DNA of 64,000 nt from an uncultured Pseudomonadota bacterium (GTDB lineage Bacteria > Pseudomonadota > Gammaproteobacteria > Burkholderiales > Casimicrobiaceae), in the NCBI GenBank assembly GCA_963709335.1, contig CAVPWB010000009.1:90997-154996 (forward strand), written 5' to 3'. Below the pieces are notes generated by a model. The model ran no database searches. It was not told the origin of the DNA and saw only the letters and a program-made list of their open reading frames with translations. Positions within the stretch are counted from its first letter, which is position 1. Every line of letters begins with the position of its first letter. Below, piece by piece: positions 47,229 to 52,926 of the stretch. Both the position numbers and the translations under genes were made by a program.

Positions 47229-48176
47229 TTACGCGCTCGCCTGATCGAGCGCGCGCACCGCATCCGCGTCGAGCCGCAGGCGCGTGGCGGCAATGAGCTC
47301 GCCCAGCTGCTCGACCGACGTCGCGCTCGCGATGGGTGCCGTGAGTCCGGGACGGTCGATGAGCCACGCCAGCGCGACTGCGGCCGGCGTCGCATGCTTG
47401 TCGGCCGCGACGCGATCGAGCGCCGCGAGAATGCGCAGACCGCGCGGATTCAGGTACTTCGACATGCCCCCGCCCCGGGCACTCTTCGCGAAGTCGGCCT
47501 CCGACCGGTACTTGCCGGTGAGAAAGCCGGCCGCGAGCGCGAAGTAACTGATGACGCCGATGCCCTCCCGGATGCACAGGCTGGCGAGCGGCCCTTCGAA
47601 TGTCGCGCGATCGTAGAGGTTGTAGGGCGGCTGCAGCGTCAGGTAGCGCGGGAGGCCGTTGCGGGCACTGACGTCGAGCGCCTGCTGCAAGCGATCGGCG
47701 GACAGGTTCGACGCCCCGATCGCCCTGACCTTCCCCTGTGCGATCAGCGTCGCATAGGCCTCGAGCGTTTCGTCCAGCGGCGTTGTCTCGTCGTCCCAGT
47801 GCGACTGGTAGAGATCGATCGCGTCGACCTGCAGACGCCGCAGCGACGCCTCGGCCGCCTGCAGGATGTAGTCCTTGCGCAGGCACTTGCGGCCAAGCCC
47901 CATGTCGGAGCCTACTTTCGTCGCGATGACGACGTCGTCGTGGCGACCCCGCGCCGCGATCCAGCGGCCGATGATCGTTTCCGACTCGCCGCCCTGGTGG
48001 CCGGTGACCCAGCGCGAATACGAATCGGCCGTGTCGATCAGGTTGAAGCCGGCGTCGACGAACGCGTCGAGCAGACGGAACGACGTCGCTTCGTCGACGG
48101 TCCAGCCGAACACGTTGCCGCCGAACGCAAGGGGCGCGACGTCGAATCCGGTATTGCCAAGCTTGCGACGATTCAT
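47229..48176 (-). CDS. aldo/keto reductase
   Basis: 315 aa: MNRRKLGNTGFDVAPLAFGGNVFG...LIDTADSYS...GASN. ATG 48176-48174 overlaps the stop of the upstream UDG-fusion gene (ATGA). Confidence 0.85.
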   Translation of the reverse strand: MNRRKLGNTGFDVAPLAFGGNVFGWTVDEATSFRLLDAFVDAGFNLIDTADSYSRWVTGHQGGESETIIGRWIAARGRHDDVVIATKVGSDMGLGRKCLRKDYILQAAEASLRRLQVDAIDLYQSHWDDETTPLDETLEAYATLIAQGKVRAIGASNLSADRLQQALDVSARNGLPRYLTLQPPYNLYDRATFEGPLASLCIREGIGVISYFALAAGFLTGKYRSEADFAKSARGGGMSKYLNPRGLRILAALDRVAADKHATPAAVALAWLIDRPGLTAPIASATSVEQLGELIAATRLRLDADAVRALDQASA

Positions 48177-49597
48177 CCAACTCCTCCTGGAATGGGCGGC
48201 GCGAGTGCAGCGGCGCGTCGCAAGTCATCGACCAGCGTTTGCAGCAACGCTGTTCGGGCAGCATCATCCGGCGCACGCAGGATCGCTGCCGGATGATACG
48301 TCGCGACCAGTCGGCGACCCTCGGCAAGCTGCAAGGGTCGTGCACGCGCCGCGGCGATCGCCATCTTCTGACCCGTCAGCGCGAAGAGCGCACTCGCGCC
48401 GAGCGCCACGACGACGCGCGGCTTCACGTGGCGCATTTCGTCGTCGAGCCAGTGCCGGCACGCGGCCACCGCCTGTTGCGACGGCGTCTTGTGAATCCGG
48501 CGCTTGCCGCGCGGCTCCCAATTGAAATGCTTGACGGCGTTGGTGATGTAGACGTCGTCCGCGGCGATACCGGCGCGTTCGAGCGCATTGCGCAGCAGCT
48601 TGCCGGCAGGCCCGACGAAGGGCTCGCCCGCGAGATCCTCCGCGTCGCCGGGTTGCTCGCCGACGAGCATCAATGCGGCGCGCGGCGGGCCCTTGCCGTT
48701 GACACCTTGCGTCGCTCGTTCCCACAACGGACAGCGGCGACAGCCATCGATGTCGGCTTTCGTCGGTGCTGCATCGCCCGGTGCGCGGGCAGCGACAGGC
48801 GCCGGCTCACGCGCCTGCGTGCGTGGGAGCCTGGGCGCCGACACAGTCTCGACCATCCGGCCAGCCCGCTGCGACGCCATGGCAACGAGCTCCGGAATTC
48901 GCGTCGCCTCCGGCAGGTTCGCCCAATATTTCTGCGGCATCTCCTTCTGCATCGCGCGAACGTTGAGACGTGCAGGATTGAAGATGCTCTCGTAGTAAAG
49001 AAGCCACAGCGCTTCCTTCGCGTCGTGCGCAGGACGCGCGATCGACGCGTCGTACGGCAGCAGCGCGAGCGCCGAACGATCCCAGTGCGCGATGCCGTCC
49101 GGCGTGACGATCGTCCAGACCATCGTCGCGAAGCGCTTGACGAAAAACGGTGCCGTCCGTGCGACGATGCGGTGCGAAGGCTCGTACCAGGCAATCCACG
49201 TCGACTCCGCGGCGCCTTCATCGCGCACTTCGCGAAAACGGACGAACGCCGTCATCTTGTGGCTGTCGAGTCGAACCGCGCGCACCATTCGCGCAACGAC
49301 GCGCACGTCGTCATCGGCGGCATCGTCGAGCAAACGCGGCTCTCCGTGGGTCACCCGCCACAGCAGCCGGTACATGACGTAAAACCGACGCTCGTCGCGG
49401 TGGCACGCCGCGGTCTCCAGCATTTCGTAGAGCTGCTGCGAGATGCGAAACGAGCCGGCGTCGCCGCTGCTCGCGACGGGGTCCGGCGCAGCGAGCACAG
49501 GCCTCTGGCGCGCATCGTCCCACTGGGCGTGCTCGGGCGCGACACCCGCTGCAAGCAGCGTACGAGCCCTTGCACGCCAGTCTGCGAATTCGTTCAC
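48173..49597 (-). CDS. DUF4130-type domain fused to a family-4/UdgX-like uracil-DNA glycosylase domain (TIGR03915/TIGR03914-like partner of the radical SAM protein)
   Basis: ORF 48173..49984 is over-extended into the upstream gene. I chose the in-frame GTG at 49597 (VNEFADWRARARTLLAAGV...), 8 nt after the radical SAM stop. DUF4130-like region KMTAFVRFREV...WIAWYEPSHRIV. UDG part CRRCPLW, LVGEQPGDAEDLAGEPFVGPAG, GKRRIHKTP, YHPAAILR. Confidence 0.8.
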   Translation of the reverse strand: MNEFADWRARARTLLAAGVAPEHAQWDDARQRPVLAAPDPVASSGDAGSFRISQQLYEMLETAACHRDERRFYVMYRLLWRVTHGEPRLLDDAADDDVRVVARMVRAVRLDSHKMTAFVRFREVRDEGAAESTWIAWYEPSHRIVARTAPFFVKRFATMVWTIVTPDGIAHWDRSALALLPYDASIARPAHDAKEALWLLYYESIFNPARLNVRAMQKEMPQKYWANLPEATRIPELVAMASQRAGRMVETVSAPRLPRTQAREPAPVAARAPGDAAPTKADIDGCRRCPLWERATQGVNGKGPPRAALMLVGEQPGDAEDLAGEPFVGPAGKLLRNALERAGIAADDVYITNAVKHFNWEPRGKRRIHKTPSQQAVAACRHWLDDEMRHVKPRVVVALGASALFALTGQKMAIAAARARPLQLAEGRRLVATYHPAAILRAPDDAARTALLQTLVDDLRRAAALAPPIPGGVG

Positions 49598-49605
49598 CGC
49601 ACTTG

Positions 49606-50823
49606 CTACAAAAGCGGCAGTTGTTGCGCCGGCGAGGCAAGCCGTGCGCGCAGCGCCGGTGTCGCCAACGCAGCGTGCCGGGGCCGGTGATCGACCGTGA
49701 CGACAAACGGCTCGGCCTTGCGAACGTCGCAGCGCAGCTTGACGAGATCGGCGTACCGCACGCGCCGCTGGCGCCGCAGCGCAAGCAGCCGCTTGACATT
49801 GCGCACGCCCAGGCCCGGCACGCGCAGCAGCGCCGCGCGCTCGGCAGCGTTGACATCGACGGGGAACGCCTCGCGATGCGCAAGTGCCCATGCGAGCTTC
49901 GGATCGATGTCGAGGTCGAGTTGTCCCCCGCGAAGCGGTGCGACGATCTCGTCTGCGCCGTAACCGTAGTGCTGAAGGAGCCAATCGGCCTGATAAAGAC
50001 GATGCTCGCGCGCCAGCGCCGGGGCTTGCACGGGCAGTTGCGCCGATGCGTGCGGAATGGGACTGAACGCCGAGTAATAGACGCGCCGCAGGCCATACGC
50101 CGCGTACAGCGTTTCGGCGGTGCGCAGGAACGTCGCGTCGGTTGACCCATCCGCTCCGACGATGAGTTGCGTGCTCTGCCCTGCCGGCGCAAAGCGACCC
50201 GATCGTGGCTCGGCCCGCGCGTGGTCACGAAAGGTGCGGATCCGCCCCATCGCGAGCTTGATCGTATGAATGCTCTTTTCCGGTGCGAGCGCCCTCAGCC
50301 CCGCTTCAGTCGGAATCTCGACATTGATGGACAGGCGATCGGCATATCGCCCGGCATCGCGAATCAGCCGCTCGTCGGCCTCGGGAATGGTCTTCAGGTG
50401 GATGTAGCCGCGAAAGTCGTGAACGGTCCGCAACGTGCGCGCAACGTCGACGAGTTGCTCCATCGTGTAGTCGGCGTTGCGGATGATTCCCGACGACAGG
50501 AACAGGCCCTCGATGTAATTGCGGCGGTAGAAATCGAGCGTCAGGTTGACGACTTCGCCGGTCGTGAAGCGCGCACGGCGCACATCGCTCGACCGCCGAT
50601 TGACGCAGTAGTGGCAGTCGTAGACGCAGAAATTCGTCAGCAGGATCTTGAGCAGCGAGATGCAGCGGCCATCGGGTGCGTACGAATGGCATATACCGGA
50701 CCCGGTGGTCGAGCCCAGGCCGCCGCTCGCCGACGATTGACGGCCGGCCGCACCGCTGCTGGCGCACGACGCGTCGTACTTCGCGGCGTCGGCGAGCAGC
50801 GCCAGCTTGCGGGACAGTTCCAT
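49606..50823 (-). CDS. putative DNA modification/repair radical SAM protein (TIGR03916-like)
   Basis: ORF 49606..51477 trimmed to the ATG at 50823-50821 (MELSRKLALLADAAKYDASCASSG...). Radical SAM CVYDCHYC. RNYIEGLFLSSGI, GYIHLKTIP. C-terminal helix-hairpin-helix-like LLRVPGLGVRNVKRLLALR. Confidence 0.85.
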   Translation of the reverse strand: MELSRKLALLADAAKYDASCASSGAAGRQSSASGGLGSTTGSGICHSYAPDGRCISLLKILLTNFCVYDCHYCVNRRSSDVRRARFTTGEVVNLTLDFYRRNYIEGLFLSSGIIRNADYTMEQLVDVARTLRTVHDFRGYIHLKTIPEADERLIRDAGRYADRLSINVEIPTEAGLRALAPEKSIHTIKLAMGRIRTFRDHARAEPRSGRFAPAGQSTQLIVGADGSTDATFLRTAETLYAAYGLRRVYYSAFSPIPHASAQLPVQAPALAREHRLYQADWLLQHYGYGADEIVAPLRGGQLDLDIDPKLAWALAHREAFPVDVNAAERAALLRVPGLGVRNVKRLLALRRQRRVRYADLVKLRCDVRKAEPFVVTVDHRPRHAALATPALRARLASPAQQLPLL

Positions 50824-50842: not shown

Positions 50843-50858
50843 CCGTATAAGTATACGG
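50843..50858. promoter_or_regulatory. perfect palindrome CCGTATA-AG-TATACGG, candidate operator of the radical SAM operon
   Basis: 7+7 inverted repeat, 19 nt upstream of the radical SAM ATG. On the coding (minus) strand it contains a -10-like TATACT. Same geometry as the CTGT-N8-ACAG LexA box. Confidence 0.4.
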
Positions 50859-50960
50859 TATGAGGACACGGCGCCCGCAAGCAAAGTTCCGCGTTTGCGG
50901 GCGCATGCGCGGGGCTTTGTTGCGAGGCTGGTTTCGCTCGCCTGTTCAACGTTCGTGCAA

Positions 50961-51677
50961 CTACGCGGTGTCGGTGCGGGCCTCGCGTTCCGCCTCGTAA
51001 CGCGCGCGGGTCTCGGCATTGGGCGGATAAAGCCCGAGCAGCGGCGCCCCGCGGCCCACCTCCTGCATGATCCACGCCTCGAGCTGCTCCTGCTCGAGCG
51101 CAAGCGCCACGACCTCGTCGACGAGCGCGGCCGGAATGACGACGGCGCCGTCGTCGTCGGCAACGATCACGTCGTCGGGAAACACGGCGACGCCGCCGCA
51201 GCCGATTGGTTCCTGCCAGTTGACGAACGTCAATCCGGCCACCGACGGCGGCGCGGCCGCGCCGGCGCACCACACCGGCAATTGCGTCCCGAGAACGCCT
51301 TGCAGATCGCGGACGACACCGTCGGTGACCAGTGCCGCGACGCCGCGCTGACGCATCCGCGCGCACAGGATGTCGCCGAAAATGCCCGCGTCGGTCACGC
51401 CGCGCGCATCGACGATGGCGATGCAGCCCGCCGGCATCGCTTCGATCGCGCCGCGCGTCGACGTCGGCTTGGCCCATGACTCGGGCGTCGCCTGGTCTTC
51501 ACGCGCCGGGATGAAGCGCAGCGTGAACGCGCGTCCGACGGTACGCGGCTGGCCGGTGCGGATCGGCTGCGTGCCGCGCATCCAGACATTGCGCAGTCCC
51601 TTTTTCAGCAACAGCGTCGTGAGCGTGGCGGTCGTCACGCTGGACAATGCGGCAATCGTCGTACGGGGAAGGTCCAT
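50961..51677 (-). CDS. RraA-family protein (regulator of RNase E activity A / HMG-aldolase-oxaloacetate decarboxylase fold)
   Basis: ATG at 51677 preceded by GGAG (a GTG at 51704 is also open). LTTLLLKKGLRNVWM, AIVDARGVTDAGIFGDILCARMRQRGVAALVTDGVVRD and PGDVI-like FPDDVIVADDDGAVVIP. Confidence 0.75.
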   Translation of the reverse strand: MDLPRTTIAALSSVTTATLTTLLLKKGLRNVWMRGTQPIRTGQPRTVGRAFTLRFIPAREDQATPESWAKPTSTRGAIEAMPAGCIAIVDARGVTDAGIFGDILCARMRQRGVAALVTDGVVRDLQGVLGTQLPVWCAGAAAPPSVAGLTFVNWQEPIGCGGVAVFPDDVIVADDDGAVVIPAALVDEVVALALEQEQLEAWIMQEVGRGAPLLGLYPPNAETRARYEAEREARTDTA

Positions 51678-51705
51678 GCGGTCTCCGCTCTCGATCGTGG
51701 GCACG

Positions 51706-51975
51706 CTAGCGCAATTCGCCGGCGACGAGCTCGTCGACGTAGCACCACACCCACGCTTCGCCAGGCTCGATCGAGCGGATCAGCGGATGCTGGGTGCGAC
51801 GGAAATGATGCGTGGCATGCTGGTTCTTGGACGCATCGCAGCAGCCGACGTTGCCGCATTCGAGGCATAACCGCAGATGCACCCACGTGTCGCCGAGCTT
51901 CACGCATTCGGCGCAGACGTGCGTAGCGGCCCGCGTGATCTTCACGGTATCGAGGTGGGTGCAGGCGGTTGCCAT
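51706..51975 (-). CDS. UBP-type zinc-finger domain protein
   Basis: 89 aa: CTHLDTV...HVCAECVKLGDTWVHLRLCLECGNVGCCDASKNQHATHHFRRTQHPLIRS...WVWCYVDE, the Cys/His pattern of zf-UBP. Confidence 0.75.
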   Translation of the reverse strand: MATACTHLDTVKITRAATHVCAECVKLGDTWVHLRLCLECGNVGCCDASKNQHATHHFRRTQHPLIRSIEPGEAWVWCYVDELVAGELR

Positions 51976-51984
51976 CGAGAGGTC

Positions 51985-52926
51985 CTAGTGGTTGGGGGTC
52001 GACGCATTTTCGACGCGTTCGAGTGCCGCGCGGTTCCACTGCGCGAGATCGGCGCCCGCTGCGTAGGTCGATTCGCAGAAGTCGCGCAACGCAGCGCTCG
52101 GCGAGCGCGCCGCGCGAACGTCGTCGTACATCAGCACGAACTCCCCGAGTGCTGCGCGATACGCGGCCGCTGCGGGCAGCACAGGCTGGTCGCGCAATCC
52201 CGCAGGCTCCGGCGCCGTATACGCATAGAACGCTGCATCGGCGATATCACCGCTGCCGGGCCAGAAGCCGACGCTGCTCACTTCGTGCGAGTACGCTTCC
52301 TGCGTGATGCGATCGGCACCGGGCCGCTCCGGCGCGCGGCGCCCCGAGAAGCGCGTCACGCAAAGATCGAAGCTGCCCCAGAAGAAATGCACCGGACTGC
52401 ATTTGCCGATGAATCCCGCACGGAATGCATTGAACGCGGTGTCGACAGTGACCAGTATCTGCGCAAAGCGCGCGACGGCTTCGCGATCGTAGCTCGCGTG
52501 GACCGTATCGTCTTCGAAGCGGATCGGGTTGGGGATCTCCACCGGCATCGTCCAGATGGCGACATCGATCCCGGCGTCGTGCAACAGCGTCATCAGGGCG
52601 CGATGAAAGTCCGCCACCGACCGCGGCTCGAGCGGCAGCGAATGACGGGCACCGTCCCCGACATCGAGCACCAGCGTGTGCGAGACGAAGTCGAACCGGA
52701 TCGCGAACGCACGGCCGCGATACGGCATCATCGATGTCGTGAGGCCGCATGGGTACACGTACAGCGGCACGTTCCACCAGTGATTGACCCTCGGCGTGAC
52801 GGCGAGGCGAATCTTGCCGACGACCTGCGTCCACATGTGCAGCGTCTCGCACGTGGCCTGCCATTCGCGCAGCGGCAGCGCCGGCCAGCATGCCGGCGAA
52901 TCGAATGCGGTGCTGGTGTCCGTCAT
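51985..52926 (-). CDS. conserved hypothetical protein (resembles the DUF5996 family)
   Basis: 313 aa: WPALPLREWQATCETLHMWTQVVGKIRLAVTPRVNHWWNVPLYV... I recognise this as the DUF5996-type N-terminus. The identification is from memory and not verified. Confidence 0.55.
   Translation of the reverse strand: MTDTSTAFDSPACWPALPLREWQATCETLHMWTQVVGKIRLAVTPRVNHWWNVPLYVYPCGLTTSMMPYRGRAFAIRFDFVSHTLVLDVGDGARHSLPLEPRSVADFHRALMTLLHDAGIDVAIWTMPVEIPNPIRFEDDTVHASYDREAVARFAQILVTVDTAFNAFRAGFIGKCSPVHFFWGSFDLCVTRFSGRRAPERPGADRITQEAYSHEVSSVGFWPGSGDIADAAFYAYTAPEPAGLRDQPVLPAAAAYRAALGEFVLMYDDVRAARSPSAALRDFCESTYAAGADLAQWNRAALERVENASTPNH

Follow-up and report, generated by a model that had tools for sequence, protein, structure and literature searches.

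A UdgX-family domain fused to DUF4130 in a radical SAM operon predicted to be under SOS control

The 64,000-nucleotide stretch analysed here (positions 90,997 to 154,996 of contig CAVPWB010000009.1, from an uncultured Casimicrobiaceae bacterium; hereafter the window) carries on its minus strand a gene whose 474-residue product joins an N-terminal DUF4130 domain to a C-terminal domain with the fold of a uracil-DNA glycosylase (UDG). Judged by its sequence and predicted fold, the C-terminal half is a genuine UdgX-family domain, and we consider it probable that it acts as a UdgX crosslinker in an SOS operon, by the three-step mechanism proposed below. UdgX is in wide use as a uracil-detection reagent. 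When it excises uracil, a His in a loop attacks C1' of the sugar to give an irreversible protein-DNA bond, and substitution of that His yields a turnover glycosylase. The role that UdgX plays in physiology is still mostly unknown (PMC10359453), and the UdgX biochemistry that we found in the literature concerns stand-alone proteins or proteins whose architecture is not reported.

Studies of SOS regulons have treated the operon as a plain uracil base excision repair (BER) system, while surveys of radical S-adenosylmethionine (SAM) enzymes and of domains of unknown function leave its partners uncharacterized. A full-text literature search for UdgX together with 'radical SAM' returned no paper naming both, and in the UdgX literature we found no mention of a fusion or of a radical SAM enzyme. 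Of most note here are the connection of the SOS 'UDG' operon with UdgX chemistry, which had gone unremarked, the even division of fused and free forms, and a predicted variant LexA operator. Roughly one UdgX domain in two is firmly tied to a radical SAM enzyme that is inducible by damage, and the 'UDG' of the SOS regulons is predicted to act as a crosslinker that is used once and does not turn over; Caulobacter, Agrobacterium, Bradyrhizobium and Cupriavidus are hosts in which the system can be approached genetically.

The UdgX domain of the fusion protein

The UdgX-family domain comprises residues ~275-474 (48176..48775, minus strand). An initial annotation had read KRRIH from the reverse complement of 48491-48505 and described it as a UdgX-type loop, and direct translation of 48505..48491 on the minus strand, AAGCGCCGGATTCAC, indeed gives K-R-R-I-H, residues K365-R366-R367-I368-H369, a pentapeptide that occurs once in the six-frame translation of the window (66.7% G+C). 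The motifs quoted alongside it, GEQPG, NAVKHFNWEPRGKRRIHKTPS, YHPAAILR, CRRCPLW and AACRHW, are all present as given, and the conserved Cys residues of the domain number three, not four (C286, C289 and C380). The loop also occupies the position expected of the UdgX R-loop, an insertion that follows motif 3: GKRRIHKTPS aligns without offset to crystallised UdgX, with K365-H369 falling column for column on 105-KRRIH-109. Because this placement comes from the phmmer alignment of the domain to the Mycobacterium smegmatis protein (MsmUdgX) in the PDB, the match reflects homology and not chance, and H369 is the predicted nucleophile, the counterpart of H109 in MsmUdgX.

Family models place the domain in the same way. 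With TIGR03914, whose cutoff is 189.95, it reaches 272.9 bits over profile positions 2-230 of 231, and it matches the Pfam UDG model with an E value of 1e-33; the family-4 subfamily model TIGR00758 is passed marginally (130.7 bits against 125.3) and the archaeal equivalog NF040953 is failed (131 against 250). MsmUdgX is the best PDB match of the C-terminal 198 residues (phmmer, E 5e-49), and family-4 UDGs follow in the same search at E 1e-26 to 1e-30. The connection with UdgX had been offered as a fresh one, which it is not at the level of the family, as NCBIfam now lists TIGR03914 under the title 'UdgX family uracil-DNA binding protein'; since this name and the NCBI product names already say UdgX, the gene is an ordinary and already nameable family member.

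A pairwise map to MsmUdgX (MSMEG_0265; PDB 6AIL, 6AJO, 6IO9 and 6IOD) gives 54% identity over 181 residues and pairs C24, C27 and C120 with C286, C289 and C380; E52 and Q53 with E314 and Q315; D56 and D59 with D318 and D321; F65 with F327; N91 and K94 with N353 and K356; K105-H109 with K365-H369 (R107 being R367); and H178 and R184 with H435 and R441. Kept in the window protein are 11 of the 11 UdgX residues defined by mutagenesis, whose roles are described in two studies (E52, D56, D59, F65, H178, N91, K94, R107 and H109 in PMC10776899; E52, Q53, H109 and R184 in PMC10359453). Among them is the inter-motif salt-bridge triad D56/D59-R107, which is absent from other UDG families (PMC10776899) and is present here as D318, D321 and R367. 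Motif A, G313-E-Q-P-G317 (48647..48661, minus strand), holds E314 and the UdgX-type Gln Q315, and D318 and D321 lie just downstream of it; motif B, H435-P-A-A-I-L-R441 (48275..48295, minus strand), supplies the equivalents of H178 and R184. The two proteins are thus alike in fold, in GEQPG, KRRIH and HPxxxLR, in the triad and in three Cys residues, but differ in architecture, as MsmUdgX is a stand-alone protein of 209 aa to which the window protein adds an N-terminal DUF4130 domain and linker of 262 residues. Every UdgX-specific determinant is present, and the loop corresponds to the UdgX R-loop in position and in structure, in agreement with the UdgX-type assignment that the initial annotation had made.

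The three Cys residues are predicted iron-sulfur ligands. In family-4 UDGs the position of the fourth ligand is the Cys of 'KCRP'; the corresponding residue of the window protein is the family-invariant His357 (NAVKHF), which is probably the fourth ligand here.

The structural match is of the same kind. An AlphaFold2 model of the fusion protein, built from an alignment of 44 fusion homologues, has a mean predicted local distance difference test score (pLDDT) of 85 and a predicted template-modelling score (pTM) of 0.54, with residues 253-269 disordered (pLDDT <50). These fall in a low-complexity Ala/Pro/Arg linker (residues ~253-274; 48776..48841, minus strand), and the low pTM leaves the orientation of the domains undefined, the two being like beads on a string. 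All of the top 30 PDB matches found by Foldseek are UdgX structures (target-normalised template-modelling score 0.80-0.90, root-mean-square deviation 1.5-1.9 Å), and family-4 UDGs rank next (2.2-3.3 Å).

Fused and free forms and their control

The operon is a textbook member of the TIGR03914/TIGR03915/TIGR03916 cassette, with three of three models above cutoff: a radical SAM gene (49606..50823, minus strand; TIGR03916, 536.4 bits against 343.5) comes first, and the co-directional adjacent gene that follows encodes the TIGR03915 domain (195.4 bits against 112.25) as part of the fusion. This domain, DUF4130, makes up the N-terminal half of the product (residues ~1-252; 48842..49597, minus strand) and is also recognised by PF13566 (E 1.4e-36, residues 199-359 of the longer open reading frame described below).

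We surveyed UdgX loci with one genome per species and with patterns taken from the domain alignment, covering Alpha-, Beta- and Gammaproteobacteria, Acidobacteriota, Actinomycetota, Verrucomicrobiota, Gemmatimonadota and others; loci were classed by tblastn with the DUF4130 and radical SAM proteins of the window over a neighbourhood of 6 kb. At least 80 loci were found, and the figures that follow refer to the 80 listed. Half of these (40) encode a DUF4130-UdgX fusion with a radical SAM gene upstream, which is adjacent in most and separated by an insert of 0.6-1 kb in seven; one encodes a fusion with no visible radical SAM gene, two have a DUF4130 tail alone before UdgX, and 37 are stand-alone UdgX genes with neither partner within 6 kb. 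A wider HMMER search of 1.84 billion cluster representatives returned 738 clusters at E ≤ 1e-30, and among the best 150 of these (representatives of 50% clusters) there are 64 fusions, 74 stand-alone proteins and 12 partial ones. UdgX domains therefore divide about evenly between radical SAM-linked DUF4130 fusions and stand-alone proteins.

The residues that define UdgX are shared by both forms. In a domain alignment of 85 rows (the 80 loci, three further stand-alone genes designated L001-L003, the window protein and MsmUdgX; 42 fusions including the window, 41 stand-alone proteins including MsmUdgX and L001-L003, and two remnants), the loop His is invariant in 85 of 85 rows, and so in each of the 42 fusions. 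The loop follows the pattern K-x-R-[ILM]-H, its third position being Arg in every row, and GEQPG is found in 84 of the 85. Across 44 closer fusions the columns of H369, R366, E314, Q315, D318 and D321 do not vary and the conservation of R367 is 90% or more; GEQPG and x-R-R-[ILVM]-H are near-universal among 120 close stand-alone and 120 close fusion matches. Motif B is more variable (loci L004-L083), being mostly HPS(Y/F)LLR in fusions and mostly HPS(S/A)xLR in stand-alone proteins; HPAAILR of the window protein has the stand-alone flavour, and the domain is 65-69% identical to betaproteobacterial stand-alone proteins and farther from the fusions of other classes.

Three loci preserve deletion or decay derivatives of the cassette. 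In Stella vacuolata (L020, 5512-6609) a radical SAM N-terminus (LDLSRKLEILADAAK...) is joined in a single open reading frame to the ~50 C-terminal residues of DUF4130, and UdgX follows intact; the same DUF4130 tail is kept with an intact UdgX domain in L063 (271-1092); and in Komagataeibacter (L078, 5116-6558) DUF4130 has decayed and the radical SAM gene is gone, with UdgX again intact. Such 'fossils' of deletion show that the cassette can give rise to stand-alone genes, and UdgX is a module that moves into and out of the cassette and persists by itself.

The stand-alone genes L001-L003 lie on long contigs and have no radical SAM gene within 6 kb. That of L001 (8001-12182, from a Burkholderiales metagenome-assembled genome) adjoins convergent LigD and Ku genes of non-homologous end joining, and that of L002 adjoins a DEAD-box helicase gene.

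Predicted control by the SOS response follows the cassette and not UdgX as such. We scanned upstream regions for the LexA box appropriate to the taxon, which is CTGT-N8-ACAG for Betaproteobacteria and, for Alphaproteobacteria, GAAC-N7-GAAC or its complement. It was found in 34 of 38 radical SAM operons, at no more than about 60 nt from the radical SAM start apart from one at 97 nt; the same scan of stand-alone UdgX genes gave none in 40. Damage-response control of the cassette has been published, PMC8565304 describing a COG1573-COG4277 'UDG base excision repair' operon in the SOS regulon of Caulobacter (Alphaproteobacteria), Verrucomicrobia and Bacteroidetes. In Acinetobacter, which has no LexA, expression of a radical SAM gene and a TIGR03915 gene, among other DNA-damage-response genes, depends on DdaA (PMC12392091).

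The window itself has no match to canonical CTGT-N8-ACAG. Instead, 19 nt 5' of the radical SAM ATG there is a perfect palindrome, TACCGTATACTTATACGG (50843..50860, minus strand), which is unique in the window and occupies the position of the canonical LexA box in orthologous operons. It has the form TACCGTAT-N4-ATACGG(TA), with CCGT..ACGG in place of the CTGT..ACAG of Beta- and Gammaproteobacteria. The palindrome is kept in three close relatives (L084-L086, 75-84% protein identity) though their intergenic flanks diverge, and a relative at 59% (L087) has CCGCATGCATATGCGG, still palindromic with both arms altered. A metagenome scan for TACCGTAT-N4-ATACGG gave at least 120 matches, mostly chance occurrences in low-GC contigs; about 11 high-GC matches with AT-rich spacers are informative, and none of these is the window's own operon. 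Among them the palindrome stands right after the TTGACA-N17-TATAAT promoter of lexA in L092 and L169 (TIGR00498, E 1e-69) and immediately 5' of dnaE2, an error-prone polymerase gene, in L162, L165 and L207 (NF004225). Because the palindrome is conserved, lies at the orthologous site and is common to lexA and dnaE2 promoters, we infer that TACCGTATACTTATACGG serves as LexA operator in a lineage with a LexA that recognises CCGT..ACGG, and that the operon in the window is under SOS control; the gene would then share an operon of LexA type with a radical SAM gene, which may set it apart from that of MsmUdgX. The recognition helix of the L169 LexA is GFRTASSAEDHLRALARKG, where that of Escherichia coli is GFRSPNAAEEHLKALARKG.

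About 25 nt 5' of the operator, CGGAACTT (50884..50891, minus strand) is identical between the window and four relatives, in intergenic DNA that has otherwise diverged. A scan for sigma-70 consensus promoters upstream of the operon found no match, and CGGAACTT may be a promoter element, -35-like and of a non-sigma-70 type. Directly 3' of the variant operator in L168 (542-841) and L201 (224-532) is a conserved open reading frame of ~100 aa (MRYAVRLL... or MRFAVRLL...), which has no NCBIfam match and is a candidate uncharacterised SOS gene.

Proposed mechanism and alternatives

By analogy with MsmUdgX, the domain would flip uracil out of DNA, whether single- or double-stranded, with F327 stacked on the base, and would read it through N353, H435 and the backbone of E314. 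H369, positioned by the D318/D321-R367 salt bridges and by E314, would attack C1' of the sugar during cleavage of the glycosidic bond and so leave the protein covalently and stoichiometrically on the abasic site, once per molecule and with no release; the conserved residues argue strongly that the window protein crosslinks in this way. Expression would rise after DNA damage, as operator conservation and the published SOS regulons suggest, at a time when damage would make single-stranded DNA abundant, in which cytosine would deaminate fastest and a free abasic site would amount to a strand break. A covalent cap would guard the abasic site, block mutagenic bypass and favour RecA-dependent template switching, as the discoverers of UdgX proposed for the stand-alone protein. 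The toxicity of UdgX and its repair are RecA-dependent. In the last and least certain step the crosslink would both shield the abasic site and anchor the radical SAM/DUF4130 machine there, because a flexible linker connects UdgX with DUF4130, for which docking on the radical SAM enzyme is predicted. The enzyme might then act on the adduct itself or on a lesion nearby; the modelled complex described below hints that the crosslink might park the enzyme at the site through DUF4130.

There are precedents for parts of this scheme in other systems. Proteins of the SRAP family (YedK, HMCES) covalently cap abasic sites in single-stranded DNA against breakage. The analogy, one of SOS-linked covalent capping, is functional only, since SRAP has an unrelated fold and forms a thiazolidine through Cys2 on a pre-existing abasic site, whereas UdgX makes the abasic site and links to it through His. 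DUF4130 belongs to the same network of SOS gene neighbourhoods as SRAP (PMC3765255). To our knowledge, direct repair of DNA by a radical SAM enzyme is well understood only for SplB (spore photoproduct lyase, COG1533). SplB offers a precedent for the radical SAM partner and is SOS-regulated in several phyla, according to PMC8565304, but TIGR03916 forms a family of its own, characterised by a C-terminal helix-hairpin-helix (HhH) motif and an obligatory DUF4130 partner, and apart from a weak likeness of the HhH region to RuvA the window radical SAM protein has no sequence match among solved structures.

Several observations weigh against the crosslinker mechanism as we propose it. The lead-in to the loop lacks two residues by comparison with the crystallised mycobacterial protein (KHFNW--EPRGKRRIH against KHFKFTRAAGGKRRIH), K97 of MsmUdgX is replaced by Asn, and the R-loop (residues 361-370) is modelled with low confidence (pLDDT 57). 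The short lead-in is, in the domain alignment, common to most non-actinobacterial members, and for K97 the UdgX literature describes only backbone contacts; Bll3023 of Bradyrhizobium, a proteobacterial UdgX, has been purified with UdgX activity reported (PMC5449639, PMC10359453), so that a short-loop UdgX should be competent. A cluster of 480-aa fusions from Bradyrhizobium bears the UdgX family name at NCBI, and strain USDA110 is not among its listed members. We found no biochemistry in the literature for any confirmed DUF4130 fusion, and control of the window operon by LexA is deduced from operator similarity. As for the anchoring step, it leans on a complex of a non-fused DUF4130 from another organism with its radical SAM neighbour, predicted with confidence by AlphaFold3 in a preprint that proposes a nucleic-acid-binding role and mentions the occasional UDG fusion of DUF4130 without calling the UDG UdgX (bioRxiv 10.64898/2026.08.19.745780). 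Lastly, the 37 stand-alone genes indicate that UdgX needs no partner, being equally common without a radical SAM gene, so that the coupling could be merely regulatory; and in a neighbour-joining tree of the domains fused and stand-alone forms interleave roughly by taxon, which speaks against strict dependence on the radical SAM enzyme.

The alternative readings differ in what becomes of the adduct, or in whether there is one. In the invariance of the His in fusions, the tie to a docking domain and the damage-inducible operon there is reason to think that the radical SAM/DUF4130 cassette would work through, or have to resolve, a covalent intermediate, but that the radical SAM enzyme processes the adduct is speculation. 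It might be that the crosslink is obligatory and that the enzyme, placed by DUF4130, resolves or transforms the tethered sugar or the His-sugar bond, recycling the protein or turning the site into a repairable end; we regard this as unlikely, though not negligible. The joining of UdgX to a domain that docks on the radical SAM enzyme is strictly conserved and all 40 operons share one gene order, the His never varies among the fusions, a DNA-binding HhH motif is present in the radical SAM protein, and the UdgX literature, which invokes RecA or proteases, offers no dedicated route of resolution, all of which such a role would suit. It sits poorly with the stand-alone UdgX genes, which are just as common and lack a radical SAM gene within 6 kb, and with the derivatives L020, L063 and L078, which lost the radical SAM gene but keep UdgX intact; the occurrence of UdgX in fused and free form argues that radical SAM action on the adduct is not required. 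We know of no chemistry that reverses a His-C1' adduct, which also counts against it. By the TIGRFAM description, moreover, most radical SAM/DUF4130 pairs have no UDG domain, and this speaks against strict dependence on the adduct. One example is that from Lachnospiraceae (bioRxiv 10.64898/2026.08.19.745780), and the many pairs of this kind imply that the core pair must have a substrate besides the UdgX adduct. A related and rather doubtful idea is that the SOS-induced radical SAM/DUF4130 machine uses the His-C1' adduct as a covalent handle after the fusion has trapped a uracil site, with radical chemistry on the abasic sugar or the His-sugar bond freeing the protein or yielding a defined repair intermediate; if true, this would be a dedicated pathway that makes and then undoes a DNA-protein crosslink, and would supply the missing role of UdgX.

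That the protein is instead an ordinary multiple-turnover family-4 UDG of BER, with KRRIH merely structural, seems to us highly improbable. The marginal pass of TIGR00758 would favour it, as would the label 'UDG base excision repair system' in the SOS papers (PMC8565304) and a 2026 paper that lists TIGR03914 as a family-4 UDG. Family-4 UDGs such as Thermus UDGA (1UI0) and Thermotoga TM0511 (1VK2) do share the fold, ancestry, N-terminal CxxC iron-sulfur ligands and motif positions of the window protein, but they have GE(A/G)PG, no R-loop and no His nucleophile and they turn over, whereas the window protein has Gln at the variable position and an R-loop. The UdgX model and UdgX structures match it far better, the UdgX-specific Gln of motif A, the triad and the loop His are present and invariant, and in MsmUdgX, which has the same set of residues, turnover is a property of His mutants only and not of the wild type. 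There is very little, too, to recommend the view that the fused domain reads a non-canonical base, for example a uracil derivative arising from damage or made by the radical SAM enzyme, and serves as a lesion reader or as an anchor for the product of that enzyme. It would be in keeping with the work of Aravind and colleagues, who in 2013 grouped DUF4130 together with radical SAM enzymes and UDGs in a network of SOS neighbourhoods and suggested that the system 'might modify thymines' (PMC3765255), and HPS(Y/F)LLR in place of HPS(S/A)xLR hints at a slightly different pocket in many fusions. The positions that read uracil (N91, F65, H178 and the backbone of E52) are nevertheless unchanged, and motif B of the window protein is itself of the stand-alone type. 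Dihydrouracil, hypoxanthine and hydroxymethyluracil oligonucleotides are in the substrate table of the 2015 UdgX study, and MsmUdgX reportedly formed no complexes with them, a further point against a different target.

The gene, its partners and its neighbours

The fusion gene (48173..49597, minus strand) begins with GTG at 49597, and the mechanical open reading frame, 48173-49984, is too long at its 5' end. The product starts MNEFADW... (MNEFADWRARAR), in agreement with the called start of a database protein that is 99% identical (P0121), and an identical 474-aa protein is already present in a public sequence collection; homologues at 78-79% identity come from Casimicrobiaceae metagenome-assembled genomes and carry a UdgX family product name at NCBI. 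The radical SAM stop codon, TAG at 49608-49606, is separated from the GTG by 8 nt. Two near-identical metagenome copies of the gene (P0133 and P0153) have a frameshift within or just before the UdgX domain, which could be assembly errors or mark pseudogenes.

In the radical SAM protein the CX3CX2C motif, CVYDCHYC, is encoded at 50605-50628 and the C-terminal HhH motif, VPGLG, at 49807-49821, both on the minus strand. Compared with PDB sequences, the protein has no solved homologue, only the HhH region being weakly like RuvA, and no solved relative of DUF4130 was found.

The third gene of the operon (47229..48176, minus strand) encodes an aldo/keto reductase (PF00248, E 4e-70) and is translationally coupled to the fusion gene, its start overlapping the fusion stop codon in a 4-nt ATGA that recurs in the three closest relatives, L084-L086. 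It is absent from the 59% relative L087, and in none of the 80 genomes surveyed does it adjoin the fusion gene; being confined to the closest relatives, and so a feature of this lineage only, the reductase was rejected as a general part of the system acting on the aldehyde of an open abasic site. In operons of the Sphingomonas type a hemerythrin-domain gene (PF01814) stands between the radical SAM and DUF4130-UdgX genes (L060, 4751-5227; L066, 4633-5139; L058), and in L036 a similar gap makes such an insert likely; the hemerythrin protein may protect or repair oxygen-sensitive iron-sulfur clusters. Upstream of the window operon, on the same strand and beyond the promoter/operator region, lie genes for RraA-like, zf-UBP and DUF5996 proteins (50961-52926), which are syntenic in L084-L086 and are probably unrelated to the operon.

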